Source: Coraliomargarita sp. (GTDB lineage Bacteria > Verrucomicrobiota > Verrucomicrobiia > Opitutales > Coraliomargaritaceae). From it: DNA of 64,000 bases. This document shows positions 4,221 through 6,837 of the stretch, piece by piece. Made by a program: the position numbers and the translations under genes. Each line of letters begins with the position of its first letter. Positions within the stretch are counted from its first letter, which is position 1. The stretch lies in the NCBI GenBank assembly GCA_965216325.1, contig OZ244160.1, positions 2,272,001 through 2,336,000 on the forward strand. Direction: 5' to 3'. The notes beneath the pieces were generated by a model that was not told where the DNA came from, searched no databases, and saw only the letters and a program-made list of their open reading frames with translations.

Positions 4221-4277
4221 ATAGAACGTAGAAGACTGGCGCGCCGTTAGGCGTTGTCCAGCTCTGACTGGATGGCT
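4221..4277 (-). repeat. attC5
   Basis: AGCCATC-CAGTC-AGAGCTGG...CCAGTCT-TCTAC-GTTCTAT. Confidence 0.85.
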
Positions 4278-4780
4278 CCCGATTCTGTCTGAATCCTGCC
4301 GTAGTTCCAACGCCATGCGAGCGTCACAAAAAGGTAGATTATCGCTGCTAGCATGAAGAAGCAGTAGATTCCCCAAATATCTAGGCGTGGCTGAGAATAT
4401 AAAAGACTTCCAGTGATCGCCAATGCTCCAATCATGACCAATAATGCTTTCATTCCTTTATTCAGTTTAAGCTTAGTATCGAGCTTCCACTTGATCAGGT
4501 CGATGATGCTTAACCCGAATTCGACAATATAGCTGACAATACACGGTGCGGCTATGATTCCGGCAATGCAGATATAAATGATAAGATGGTTCTTTTCTTT
4601 TGCCGTGTATCCTGCCTGCCAAGGTGACGCATAGCTAACTGCGACTCCGTAGGCGATGAGGCCTAAGATCACGCTGAGAATGATTCCCTTTTGTCCGTGG
4701 GCTTCTTTAAACACTGGGTTGAAAAGTGGGATGCGCTGCAGATGTGCTAGCTCTGCTTTGATCTGTCTTTTCAGTTTCAT
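4247..4780 (-). CDS. Cassette 5: four-TM membrane protein (alternative start 4792)
   Basis: Four hydrophobic segments; stop inside attC5. Confidence 0.75.
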   Translation of the reverse strand: MKLKRQIKAELAHLQRIPLFNPVFKEAHGQKGIILSVILGLIAYGVAVSYASPWQAGYTAKEKNHLIIYICIAGIIAAPCIVSYIVEFGLSIIDLIKWKLDTKLKLNKGMKALLVMIGALAITGSLLYSQPRLDIWGIYCFFMLAAIIYLFVTLAWRWNYGRIQTESGAIQSELDNA

Positions 4781-4786
4781 TCTTTC

Positions 4787-4842
4787 AGCCATCGTGGAGG
4801 ATGAGCGACGGCGTAGCCGTTGCTCACTCCGCCTTGTTAGCA
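4787..4842 (-). repeat. attC4
   Basis: TGCTAAC-AAGGC-GGAGTGAGC...GCTCATCC-TCCAC-GATGGCT. Confidence 0.85.
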
Positions 4843-5333
4843 GTGCTTTGTTTTGGAGTTCCTATAACGCTTAAAGACGTAGATGCCTCTTTGATGGGTG
4901 CATGCCAGAGTTCATACTTTTTCGTCAATGTCTCTCCAATCGAGTATTGAACGTGGACCGCCTCTCCATCTTCAACGTCAATGGTGCTTGGGGTGAGCTT
5001 CATATGAAACCCCGTGGCTTCACCAGGACTAAGTGTCACAGGATGATATGGTGACAATGATGGGACTAACTCATGCCCGAGCATTCTTTTCTTTCCCCCA
5101 AAGCCGGCCTGAACAATCAGAATGCCGTCTGCACCTCTGGCGATGGCTTTGGAGTCAGGCTCTGTCAGTAAGGTTATCTTCTCTTCTGTGGTGTTGATGA
5201 GAACGATGCCGACCATTAGATCATGATCGGAAGCTCGATACACTACTTTCGCCTTCATGTCGATTCCATCGGAGTGACAGATTGAAAGAGCAATCGAGAA
5301 TATGGCAATAAGTAGGAGTCTTCTTTTTTTCAT
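4824..5333 (-). CDS. Cassette 4: secreted hypothetical protein
   Basis: MKKRRLLLIAIFSIALS signal peptide; stop inside attC4. Confidence 0.75.
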   Translation of the reverse strand: MKKRRLLLIAIFSIALSICHSDGIDMKAKVVYRASDHDLMVGIVLINTTEEKITLLTEPDSKAIARGADGILIVQAGFGGKKRMLGHELVPSLSPYHPVTLSPGEATGFHMKLTPSTIDVEDGEAVHVQYSIGETLTKKYELWHAPIKEASTSLSVIGTPKQSTANKAE

Positions 5334-5335
5334 TA

Positions 5336-5392
5336 TGCTAACGTGGAGATGTGGTGACGGCGTTAGCCGTTGCCACAATCGGCTGGTTCTCG
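5336..5392 (-). repeat. attC3
   Basis: CGAGAAC-CAGCC-GATTGTGG...CCACATC-TCCAC-GTTAGCA. Confidence 0.85.
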
Positions 5393-5725
5393 CTTTGGTT
5401 TGGTTGGAATTGTCAGTGCGACCACAAAAACAAAAATGCCGCTAAAGAACAGCGTATCCGCAGTTTTGCTTTTCGTTTCTCGGATGCTGTGCGCAGTGTA
5501 GATCAATGGTTCGAGTCTATGGTGAAACAGCTGCTTTCTAACTTCTTTTTCATCTGAAGAGGCGCTCGCAGCGTAGAGCTCAATGATCTCTTCATTTTCT
5601 CTTATTATTTCTTTCTCAAAAGTGTCGATGTTGGAAGTTGCTCGTGGATGTGAAATTGAGAAATTGAATCCCAAGATGATCTGAATCATCCCGATAAAAA
5701 GTAGAATCCGTTTCCTGATTTTCAT
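5363..5725 (-). CDS. Cassette 3: membrane protein with N- and C-terminal hydrophobic helices
   Basis: 120 aa ORF; stop inside attC3. Confidence 0.7.
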   Translation of the reverse strand: MKIRKRILLFIGMIQIILGFNFSISHPRATSNIDTFEKEIIRENEEIIELYAASASSDEKEVRKQLFHHRLEPLIYTAHSIRETKSKTADTLFFSGIFVFVVALTIPTKPKREPADCGNG

Positions 5726-5727
5726 TC

Positions 5728-5782
5728 CGAGAACGTGGAGTAGTGGCGCGGCACAGCCGTTGCCACTTACGTCTGGTTCGGC
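5728..5782 (-). repeat. attC2
   Basis: GCCGAAC-CAGAC-GTAAGTGGC...GCCACTAC-TCCAC-GTTCTCG. Confidence 0.85.
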
Positions 5783-6177
5783 TCGATTGGTTCTAGGGTG
5801 ATTAGGAGTTCCGATGGGTCTGAATCTGAATATTCAATCACTTCTGTTTTATATCCGTTCGCACCTGCTTCGATTTTGAGGTGTCTGACAAATACAACCG
5901 AAAGTCGTGCTTTTCCTTCTCCTAGAATGGTCAGCTTATGCTTCGGTTTAATTTCATCGAAGGAATACATCGGCTCAACACCAATGGATGCTTCTTTTAA
6001 TTTCTTTCCTTCTTTATTTTCTATTCTGAGTTGGATCTCTCTGAGTGTTAAGTCTTCAATTTCCCACTTCAGATGGGATTGATTGGTCCACAAAAAGAAC
6101 GCAGCGATGCCTAGTGCAAGTAGAAGAACGCTTGGTGCTGCTGCAATGGTGTCTGATATCGCTTTTCCTATTTTCAT
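5767..6177 (-). CDS. Cassette 2: membrane-anchored hypothetical protein
   Basis: 136 aa, N-terminal TM helix; stop inside attC2. Confidence 0.72.
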   Translation of the reverse strand: MKIGKAISDTIAAAPSVLLLALGIAAFFLWTNQSHLKWEIEDLTLREIQLRIENKEGKKLKEASIGVEPMYSFDEIKPKHKLTILGEGKARLSVVFVRHLKIEAGANGYKTEVIEYSDSDPSELLITLEPIEPNQT

Positions 6178-6186
6178 TTTTCTTTC

Positions 6187-6257
6187 GCCGAACGTGAAGC
6201 ACTATCGCGAGTGAAGCGCGGAGCGCGAAACGAGTTGATAGGTGCGACTGGATATGT
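6187..6257 (-). repeat. attC1
   Basis: ACATATC-CAGTC-GCACCTATC...GATAGTGC-TTCAC-GTTCGGC. Confidence 0.82.
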
Positions 6258-6260
6258 CCT

Positions 6261-6656
6261 TCATTCTCCGTAGGCTACATAGAGCGTATAACCTTCGACG
6301 GTGCAAAGCTTCTTTAGATCATCTAGGAGTTTCCAGTGGGCACCAGCATAAGCTTTCGGGGTGGCTGTGCTAATGAGTATTTTCTTTTTCGAATTGAGTG
6401 AATCGGATGCTCTGAGAACCTCCTCCACAGTTTTAACACCCCAGAAGGGTTCTTTCAGTTCTTTCTTTTGGGCTTCGATTAGCAGAAACTTGGGCGGCTC
6501 ACCAGAACCATCAAAATAGTCTGCTGCAGGATTCCAAGTCGGGTTCAAGAGGTAGTGAACTGCTCCTTTTGTTTCTTCCTTACCTGCAGATGCAGCTACG
6601 GACTGAAGCAGAACTCCGATTATGCAAAAGCTGATGACTGTAATTTTCTTCCACAT
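6261..6656 (-). CDS. Cassette 1: secreted hypothetical protein
   Basis: MWKKITVISFCIIGVLLQSVAA signal peptide; ATG lies within junction G|ATATGT. Confidence 0.72.
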   Translation of the reverse strand: MWKKITVISFCIIGVLLQSVAASAGKEETKGAVHYLLNPTWNPAADYFDGSGEPPKFLLIEAQKKELKEPFWGVKTVEEVLRASDSLNSKKKILISTATPKAYAGAHWKLLDDLKKLCTVEGYTLYVAYGE

Positions 6657-6837
6657 ATCAGTGTTATGTAGTGCATTCAATGCACGTTTAGCTGTTTTTG
6701 GGATTTGTAAAAAACTTACGTTTTTTGATTTAAGTGATCTTGTTAGGGTGCGTTACTGTACTAGTAGAGGCGGATTGGGATCGAGTCATGGTTTTGAGGT
6801 AAGTCAAAATGTGAAATGGCGGCAAGGTTTGTTTCCT

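Follow-up and report, generated by a model that had tools for sequence, protein, structure and literature searches.

The window analyzed here, a 64-kb stretch of the complete 3.06-Mb genome of Coraliomargarita sp. (G000:C1:2272001-2336000), encompasses an integron cassette array at window positions 794-6659, with seven cassettes on the minus strand and seven attC recombination sites. In cassettes 1 and 5, the crossover triplet of these sites is GAT/ATC instead of the canonical GTT/AAC. Comparison of sequences across this genome and its relatives indicates that, very probably, the crossover triplet of one Verrucomicrobial family is naturally and frequently polymorphic (A/T, compensated on both arms), with GAT and GTT as its two states, and that one integrase handles both. 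The GTT/AAC triplet has been regarded as the single unvarying feature of integron recombination sites: it has been described as showing ‘absolute conservation ... all integrons characterized so far’ (PMC2811028) and as ‘universal to all attI sites’ (PMC4792948), and the attC triplet is treated as conserved in PMC4889954. The claim that GAT is unusual elsewhere rests on these papers; a full-text literature search, which did not extend to subscription-only papers and supplementary tables, did not turn up any account of GAT attC sites in nature. In the family sampled here, roughly one cassette in four uses GAT, and such cassettes are freely mixed with GTT ones. The mechanism of the tolerance is already known from laboratory work.

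The GAT cores of cassettes 1 and 5

In an array of this kind, a cassette begins after the G of the R' box of the preceding site, so that complementarity is expected between its first six bases and its own R'' box. This chain rule holds over seven of seven bases in six of the seven window cassettes, both GAT cassettes included (Table 1). The original prediction had matched the R'' boxes of cassettes 1 and 5, ACATATC and AGCCATC, to the upstream junctions G|ATATGT (6653-6659) and G|ATGGCT (4787-4793); these matches are exact, with all seven bases in each case, and correctly placed. The raw sequence equally bears out the compensation of the GAT change on both arms of the two cassettes, and the distal junction of the array is, as had been claimed, G|ATCATA (positions 794-800 of the plus strand read TATGATC). 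Box positions 4-7 had been said to depart from the classical RRRY, and indeed none of the seven window boxes fits that pattern. At the crossover triplet itself (AAC in R'', GTT in R'), sites a2 and a6, which belong to cassettes 5 and 1, respectively, carry ATC/GAT, and the other own cores are GTT in four sites and GG|T in one; because the strict GTT/AAC triplet is lacking, the attC sites of cassettes 1 and 5 are not plain members of the canonical class.

We built a covariance model, R1, from the five uninterrupted attC sites of the array, the cores of which are only GTT and GAT (GAT in two of the five). Run on the 64-kb window with filters off, R1 recognized exactly seven sites, at 30.1-66 bits and all on the plus strand, and the next best match, at 13.5 bits, was the reverse strand of one of the seven. 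The plus strand is the attC bottom strand, and the cassette open reading frames (ORFs) are on the minus strand: each of the seven sites, which are 55-71 nt long with a variable loop, follows one promoterless minus-strand ORF of 106-181 amino acids (aa), in a single orientation. No Pfam family was found for any of the seven cassette ORFs. The paired L'/L'' hairpin that characterizes attC is present, as judged from compensatory changes and from the folds of a3-a5: the 5-site alignment of the L arms contains 13 predicted pairs, nine of them with double compensatory changes, and folding as single-stranded DNA, compared with shuffled sequences, yields z scores of -3.43, -3.45 and -2.11 for a3, a4 and a5, respectively. 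Like the canonical attC sites (59-base elements; class 1, Vibrio), the window sites are imperfect inverted repeats with a compensated L box and a variable loop, are each associated with one promoterless ORF, are cut after G and form arrays read away from attI. Unlike the canonical RYYYAAC ... GTTRRRY sites, they belong to a sequence family that is almost confined to one bacterial family and in which the middle base of the triplet is A/T-polymorphic and positions 4-7 are not RRRY.

Orthologous cassettes provide a direct view of the switch. The protein of cassette 5 has one relative in the family, with 64% aa identity, in G054, a genome of another genus. There, the cassette starts with G|TTGGCT and has the R'' box AGCCAAC; compared with GATGGCT/AGCCATC in the window, the end 7-mers differ solely by the compensated double T-to-A/A-to-T switch. 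Relatives of the cassette 1 protein are encoded in G058 and G010. The G058 cassette begins with the same G|ATATGT and has a GAT-type attC (AAATATC) in a different neighborhood; in G010, the ends are degenerate.

We considered, and rejected, the possibility that G|ATG merely supplies a start codon: among the 53 GAT cores of relatives, position 4 is A in 27, C in 25 and G in a single case. The ORF of cassette 5 begins at G|ATGGCT, and its 3' end reads through R''; the likely start codon, however, is the second ATG, after a GAAAGA motif that is also found in GTT cassettes. In cassette 1, the ATG lies inside R' (positions 4-6 of GATATGT). A conserved GAAAGAA(T)-like motif follows R' in many cassettes, just before the ATG (4778-4786, 6178-6186 and 1957-1964, with equivalents in other arrays). 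It is probably a ribosome-binding or leader element that is common to the cassettes and travels with them.

GAT and GTT cores across the genome and the family

For the rest of the genome, we combined a genome-wide R1 scan (24 matches) with a filters-off scan of loci L009-L013 and accepted 22 further sites; three identical 12.6-bit matches inside introns were left out, and cores split by introns or by an IS91-like element were restored before counting. Together with the seven window sites, this gives 29 attC, with own cores GTT in 21, GAT in seven and GGT in one. Among the 25 cassettes with both ends readable, six are GAT at both ends (five with seven of seven bases matched, one with six) and none is GAT at one end only. 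Apart from window cassettes 1 and 5, the doubly-GAT cassettes are two at 0.81 Mb (GATGTGT; GATCGAC/GATCAAC), one in the 2.85-Mb array (GATCTGC), and the first cassette at attI of the complete integron L011 at 2.766 Mb, with the junction ACAGAT|C and the own core GATCTGT. The four attI junctions are evenly divided, G|AT in the window and in L011, G|TT in L009 and L010. In the 2.854-Mb integron, the attC of the first cassette was not located, and only a TTCTGC remnant was found after an intron. A genome-wide count of GAT versus GTT cores had been put forward as a check on the prediction, and GAT cores are present in other arrays both of this genome and of its relatives. We also rejected the view that the GAT sites form a separate attC lineage: near-identical site bodies carry either core (GATCTGT at genome position 2765184, GTTGGGG at 814884), and the orthologous pair of cassette 5 differs at its ends only by the double switch.

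R1 sites were detected in 62 of the 101 genomes of the family, and outside it, three of 136 genomes of the phylum yielded a single weak match; R1 is specific to the sequences of the family and, therefore, the scan beyond the family says nothing on GAT in other attC families. The family sample consists of 40 regions from 22 genomes, taken from the top of the R1 match list and not by core type. It comprised 200 matches at E <=1e-3, of which one, cut by a contig end, was dropped; the 199 sites used are all distinct in sequence. Their 3' triplets are GTT (141), GAT (53), GGT (2), ATT (2) and CTT (1), and their 5' triplets are AAC (143), ATC (54), TAC (1) and AAT (1). Essentially, variation in this sample is confined to position 2, where only A or T occurs, and G1 and T3 are invariant. 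The share of GAT is 26 of 99 sites at >=40 bits, 17 of 62 at 30-40 bits and 10 of 38 at <30 bits.

The key evidence comes from the two arms of the same cassette. Perfectly complementary 7-mers are found in 101 of the 158 adjacent site pairs. As verified neighbors, we took the 123 pairs with at least three of the four bases at positions 4-7 matched, a condition placed on positions 4-7 only. In these 123, the R' and R'' boxes of the same cassette combine as GTT/GTT in 81, GAT/GAT in 34, GTT/GAT in 3, GAT/GTT in 3 and other triplets in 2; position 2 strongly covaries between the two arms (Fisher odds ratio (OR) 306, p=4e-23). The remaining 35 pairs resemble random pairing (GTT/GTT 18, mixed 14, GAT/GAT 1, other 2), probably with a missed site or an insertion in between. 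As a control, the 5' and 3' triplets within one array site, which come from different cassettes, are independent (105/36/35/16, OR 1.33, p=0.46). Because position 2 tracks the downstream cassette and is independent of the neighbor, the crossover falls between positions 1 and 2 (G|W). This amounts to a natural genetic mapping of the in vivo crossover in a non-model phylum, which could not be read from all-GTT arrays, and constitutes evidence from nature that the mechanism leaves the middle base free to be A or T, and nothing else, with G1 and T3 fixed. The arrays also offer ready native homotypic and heterotypic substrates for the question of how R-box pairing beside the cut controls excision. 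Compensated GAT cassettes occur in 10 genomes from 6 genera. By the same control, there is no avoidance of heterotypic junctions, and enrichment of Dam sites (GATC) was rejected as well, position 4 being C in 25 of the 53 GAT cores and in 70 of the 141 GTT cores, with no difference. In practice, where an attC finder or a cassette-boundary rule requires GTT/AAC, roughly one in four sampled cassettes of this family will be missed or called wrongly.

Integrases, mechanism and alternative explanations

Three integron integrases of the genome, at 0.811, 2.766 and 2.854 Mb, exceed the TIGR02249 cut-off (340-358 bits, against 265). The integrase aligns to VchIntIA (2a3v) over 308 residues (E 6.6e-66), with the lysine at the K160 position, the beta-hairpin K in GKGHKDR, conserved, and by these features qualifies as a bona fide IntI. 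All three intI-linked arrays of the genome mix GTT and GAT cassettes. The genome G006 (99% complete) encodes one intI above the cut-off and has 45 sites, 12 GAT and 33 GTT, and in G075, the array next to intI consists of three consecutive GAT cassettes followed by GTT cassettes. Thus, the central claim of the original prediction, that the cognate recombinase accepts GAT cores as true attC substrates, is supported by every comparative test run: compensation (6/6 in the own genome, 34 against 6 mixed in relatives), the position of a GAT cassette first at the attI of L011, interleaving with GTT in intI arrays, the single intI of G006 and the ortholog switch in G054. From these comparisons, together with the junction structure, the orthologs in other contexts and the published IntI1 data, we infer that the native integrases perform GAT recombination. 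The three integrase ORFs, of 441-475 aa (L010 17692-19017; L011 14026-15438; L009 3173-4600, minus strand), carry a conserved extension of ~125-155 aa ahead of the region aligned with VchIntIA, and in the 0.81-Mb integrase, Pfam shows two stretches of the SAM-like N-terminal domain.

The assay with IntI1 that had been called for is, in essence, published, because engineered GAT/ATC attC sites have been tested with this enzyme. According to that study (Frumerie 2010, PMC2811028), GAT/ATC versions of attCaadA7 and attCVCRd are recombined by IntI1 at or above the wild-type level; the T2-to-A2 change with its complement raises recombination, and the sites are cleaved in vitro. Cleavage occurs between A2' and C3' of the bottom strand, only position 1 (G1/C3') must be identical in both partners whereas position 2 need not be, and the contact described there as the sole base-specific one is that of IntI1 K171 (VchIntIA K160) with A2' N3 and T3 O2. 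The same paper reports GAT as a preferred secondary site, cites middle-base tolerance for attI1 (Hansson 1997) and at secondary sites (Francia 1993; see also PMC10127599), and proposes that the conservation of the triplet reflects cassette exchange between integrons, not mechanism. The consensus of genomic insertion sites is given as GWT for IntI1 and IntI3 and TGWT for IntI2 (Loot preprint, bioRxiv 10.1101/2022.09.11.507474). The sites of Frumerie 2010 bear the same double change as those in the window but were made in the laboratory and combined with a proteobacterial integrase; the sites described here are natural, frequent, phylogenetically spread and mixed with GTT in arrays, and are known from sequence alone. 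The attG or secondary sites (Loot preprint; Francia 1993) share the G|WT crossover motif but are double-stranded targets in recipient genomes, not folded attC, and, unlike in that case, the window array lies at an attI-like site, not at a random GWT site.

The most probable explanation of these data is as follows. In nature, the middle base of the crossover triplet varies in this family, such that the cassette strand reads G|TT or G|AT and the bottom strand, which recombines, AA|C or AT|C; cassettes 1 and 5 are ordinary cassettes with GAT/ATC on both arms. The bottom strand of the excised cassette would fold such that the R box is fully paired. The integrase would cut between positions 1 and 2, so that the six bases after G (ATxxxx) would travel with the cassette to the upstream junction, where they are in fact found, and after strand exchange, only the first base (G/C) would need to pair. 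The conserved beta-hairpin lysine would contact the middle base pair on its minor-groove side. In the minor groove, A-T and T-A pairs present alike acceptors, and a G-C pair adds an amino group. The lysine contact would account for W, and almost never S, at position 2.

Several observations weigh against this interpretation. In the array context, the two GAT-type window sites form weak folds as single-stranded DNA (z -0.65 for a2 and +1.03 for a6, the latter no better than shuffled sequences), and both have high R1 scores by construction because they are in the training set; other triplets are slightly penalized because the training sites hold only GTT and GAT. The genomes of the family sample, being related, do not provide independent observations, draft assemblies predominate among them, and regions were picked by model score. 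Six of the 123 verified cassettes are mixed, and 35 of the 158 adjacent pairs are not verifiable as true neighbors. The array has no integrase of its own, and cassettes 1 and 5 may therefore no longer be mobile. In the arrays, 71 of the 192 sites (37%) are heterotypic, with position 2 mispaired, and a mispaired GTT-ATC attC drops IntI1 recombination from 2.2e-3 to 6e-6 (PMC2811028); if the native enzyme resembles IntI1, many sites might be poor substrates in situ. Either the native enzymes are more tolerant than IntI1, or many cassettes are locked in place.

The second option can be carried further. It is conceivable, albeit unlikely, that the polymorphism at position 2 is not neutral and that the random interleaving of two ‘end types’ provides a built-in lock on excision. 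At a boundary between a GAT and a GTT cassette, the intervening attC would fold with a mispair beside the scissile bond (a3, with ATC facing its own R'' box GTTAGCA, is heterotypic in this way), a configuration reported to lower IntI1 recombination about 370-fold (PMC2811028). Such cassettes would be hard to excise in situ but would regain a perfect site once excised. If so, whether a given cassette of a sedentary array remains mobile would depend on how the end types follow one another.

Three further explanations were weighed. Two recombinase specificities, that is, separate integrases for GTT and GAT serving two partly isolated cassette pools, might be suspected from the three intI paralogs above the family cut-off in this genome and from G087, G037 and G075, with two to four matches per genome, of which two or three exceed the cut-off. 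We consider this highly improbable: GTT and GAT are interleaved in the same arrays in a statistically random order (OR and p as in the control above), each of the three intI-linked arrays of the genome holds both kinds, G006 combines both kinds with a single intI above the cut-off, and in the laboratory, IntI1 alone handles both (PMC2811028). To mutational decay in an array without an integrase, with the two arms matching by coincidence or shared descent, we attach even less weight. The absence of intI, the weak folds of a2 and a6, and the uncompensated GG|T of the neighboring a1 would fit decay, but both arms are changed in all six GAT cassettes of the own genome and in 34 of the 40 verified cassettes of relatives with GAT on at least one arm, and GAT cassettes are found first at the attI of a complete integron and inside intI-adjacent arrays of another genus. 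Furthermore, decay would hit all three positions, whereas 194 of the 199 3' triplets are GWT and 197 of the 199 5' triplets are AWC. Decay is largely refuted by the covariation. Least plausible of all is an artefact of site finding or alignment, with boxes misplaced by one base or a model trained on two GAT sites out of five favoring GAT: the usual GT after the 5' box is missing in 23 of 199 sites and CTG/CTT before the 3' box in 13 of 199, but the boxes of the window were identified by direct inspection of the raw sequence, the proportion of GAT does not change with score class, a one-base misplacement would destroy the perfect complementarity of the 101 pairs, and ortholog flanks found by protein search, not by R1, show the same boxes. 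The preferred reading, accordingly, is that of a compensated A/T polymorphism of the crossover triplet accommodated by one integrase.

The decapitated integron and its insertions

The left flank of the window array holds an adenosine deaminase gene and slyX, and its right flank a protoporphyrinogen-oxidase-like gene and hemE; the coordinates of its components are collected in Table 1.

Table 1. Components of the cassette array in the window, in order of position; for each cassette, the R' box is compared with the complement of its own R'' box
Feature	Position	Strand	R' box	Complement of own R'' box	Matching bases	Remarks
attC a0, last of array	794-857	+				R1 30.1 bits; 5' box TATGATC (794-800), at the distal junction
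Group II intron, type 1, ORF-less	852-1510	+				RF02001 110 bits, RF01998 52.8 bits; at G|TT of a0, antisense to cassettes
Cassette 7 ORF	1498-1956	-	GTTCTGC	GTTCTGC	7/7	152 aa, signal-peptide-like N-terminus; last codons and stop inside intron
attC a1	1965-2021	+				R1 48.1 bits; 5' box GCAGAAC
Group II intron, type 2	2016-3921	+				RF02001 126.6 bits; reverse-transcriptase/maturase ORF 2443-3840 (RVT_1, GIIM); antisense to cassettes
Cassette 6 ORF	3897-4217	-	GTTCTAT	GG|TCTAT, intron-split	6/7	106 aa from ATG at 4217, membrane-like
attC a2, of cassette 5	4221-4277	+				R1 58.2 bits (in training set); 5' box ATAGAAC
a2 own R'' box	4271-4277					GATGGCT on plus strand, AGCCATC on cassette strand; GAT-type core
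Cassette 5 ORF	4247-4792	-	GATGGCT	GATGGCT	7/7	181 aa, multi-pass membrane-like
attC a3, of cassette 4	4787-4842	+				R1 65.9 bits; 5' box AGCCATC (4787-4793), the start G|ATGGCT of cassette 5
Cassette 4 ORF	4824-5333	-	GTTAGCA	GTTAGCA	7/7	169 aa, signal peptide-like
attC a4, of cassette 3	5336-5392	+				R1 59.7 bits; boxes TGCTAAC ... GTTCTCG
Cassette 3 ORF	5363-5725	-	GTTCTCG	GTTCTCG	7/7	120 aa
attC a5, of cassette 2	5728-5782	+				R1 66 bits; boxes CGAGAAC ... GTTCGGC
Cassette 2 ORF	5767-6177	-	GTTCGGC	GTTCGGC	7/7	136 aa
attC a6, of cassette 1, long-loop type	6187-6257	+				R1 54.1 bits (in training set); 5' box GCCGAAC
a6 own R'' box	6251-6257					GATATGT on plus strand, ACATATC on cassette strand; GAT-type core
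Cassette 1 ORF	6261-6656	-	GATATGT	GATATGT	7/7	131 aa, signal peptide-like
attI-cassette 1 junction	6653-6659	+				ACATAT|C, G|ATATGT on cassette strand
attI and integrase-upstream region	6659-6882	+				197/224 aligned positions (88%) identical to attI region of complete 2.854-Mb integron

The head of the array retains attI, and its junction motif is shared also with the attI of the 2.766-Mb integron; identity to the 2.854-Mb integron falls to 34% beyond 6882, and the protoporphyrinogen-oxidase-like gene ends at 6942. A search of the genome with TIGR02249 found no intI beside the window array (2.273-2.279 Mb), the nearest one being ~490 kb away. Accordingly, of the features of a complete integron, attI at the array head is present and intI next to attI is absent. 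With two or more attC and no integrase in the vicinity, the array is, by the usual classification, a cluster of attC sites lacking integron integrases (CALIN; Cury 2016, PMC4889954), having, as in the CALIN described there, its attC sites, seven in this case, in one orientation and no intI nearby. Unlike a detached CALIN, it keeps attI and ~220 nt of the integrase-upstream region and can, for this reason, be recognized as a decapitated integron, with attI and seven cassettes kept and intI lost, rather than a detached cluster. The three integrases encoded at other loci of the genome may still act on the array in trans.

The slyX locus of a congener, G002, bears on the origin of the array. There, slyX is followed by CAGTGTTA..., with no array, which raised the possibility that the window array had been inserted at a random G|AT secondary (attG) site; this was dropped because the right flank matches the attI region of a complete integron at 88% identity. 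Straight after slyX, 11 bases of G002 match the motif of the attI junction, CAGTGTTAAGG (L015 2163-2173, G002:C7), and neither cassettes nor intI were found at this locus. The leftover looks like an attI fragment, which suggests that the integron platform at the slyX locus predates the species split. In the integrase-upstream region, an inverted repeat (ATGCATTCG ... CGAATGCAT-like) is conserved (window 6830-6880; L010 17490-17545), and the window retains it despite the loss of intI. This repeat may be an operator of the integrase promoter.

Two attC sites of the window are interrupted by group II introns. The R'' box of a0 is split at 851|852, with the rest, TTCTGC, at 1511-1516, and that of a1 is split by the type 2 intron at 2015|2016 (GG|T), with the rest, TCTAT, at 3922-3926. 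The type 2 intron has five copies in the genome that are ~99.3% identical, and related copies of the type 1 intron were found as well. The two group IIC intron types target the same attC position one base apart, type 1 at G|TT and type 2 at GT|T or GG|T. Intron insertions were mapped in the window (852-1510 and 2016-3921) and in L010, L011 and L012, and all 10 mapped intron ends are in non-GAT cores, which would occur by chance with a probability of ~0.06 at a GAT share of 24%. GAT cores might escape the type 2 intron, a second conceivable, albeit unlikely, benefit of the polymorphism. In a1, the base before the intron is G, and the resulting core, GGT, facing the R' box GTTCTAT, is the sole uncompensated core in the window array. 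The last 13 nt of the cassette 7 ORF (1498-1510), with its stop, come from the 3' end of the type 1 intron; the insertion would thus have replaced the original C-terminus of the cassette 7 product or the part of the ORF that overlapped attC.

Elsewhere in the genome, attC sites are also split by a 2.55-kb element, present in three copies that are 99.7-99.8% identical (L009 7792-10341, i.e., genome 815791-818340; 1299806-1302356; 2841892-2844445). Its predicted products are a tyrosine recombinase (Phage_integrase) and an IS91-type transposase (Y2_Tnp and Zn_Tnp_IS91). In each copy, the insertion point is precisely the final base step of the top-strand R'' box (RYYYAA|C in two cases, ACACAT|C in the third), which separates R'' from the rest of attC, and the ends of the element are inverted repeats containing GTTGAAC. 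Also within the 0.81-Mb array, a truncated attC, which consists of only the 3' half and the R' box GATCGAC, is fused straight to the R' box of the preceding site (L009 10942-10966) and is best read as a deletion scar. Finally, between the adenosine deaminase gene and slyX, at window positions 484-566, there is an intergenic repeat of ~70-80 nt that resembles repetitive extragenic palindromes; it recurs in at least 15 other places in the genome and in congeners, with 75-85% identity, and is absent from the same spot in G002.

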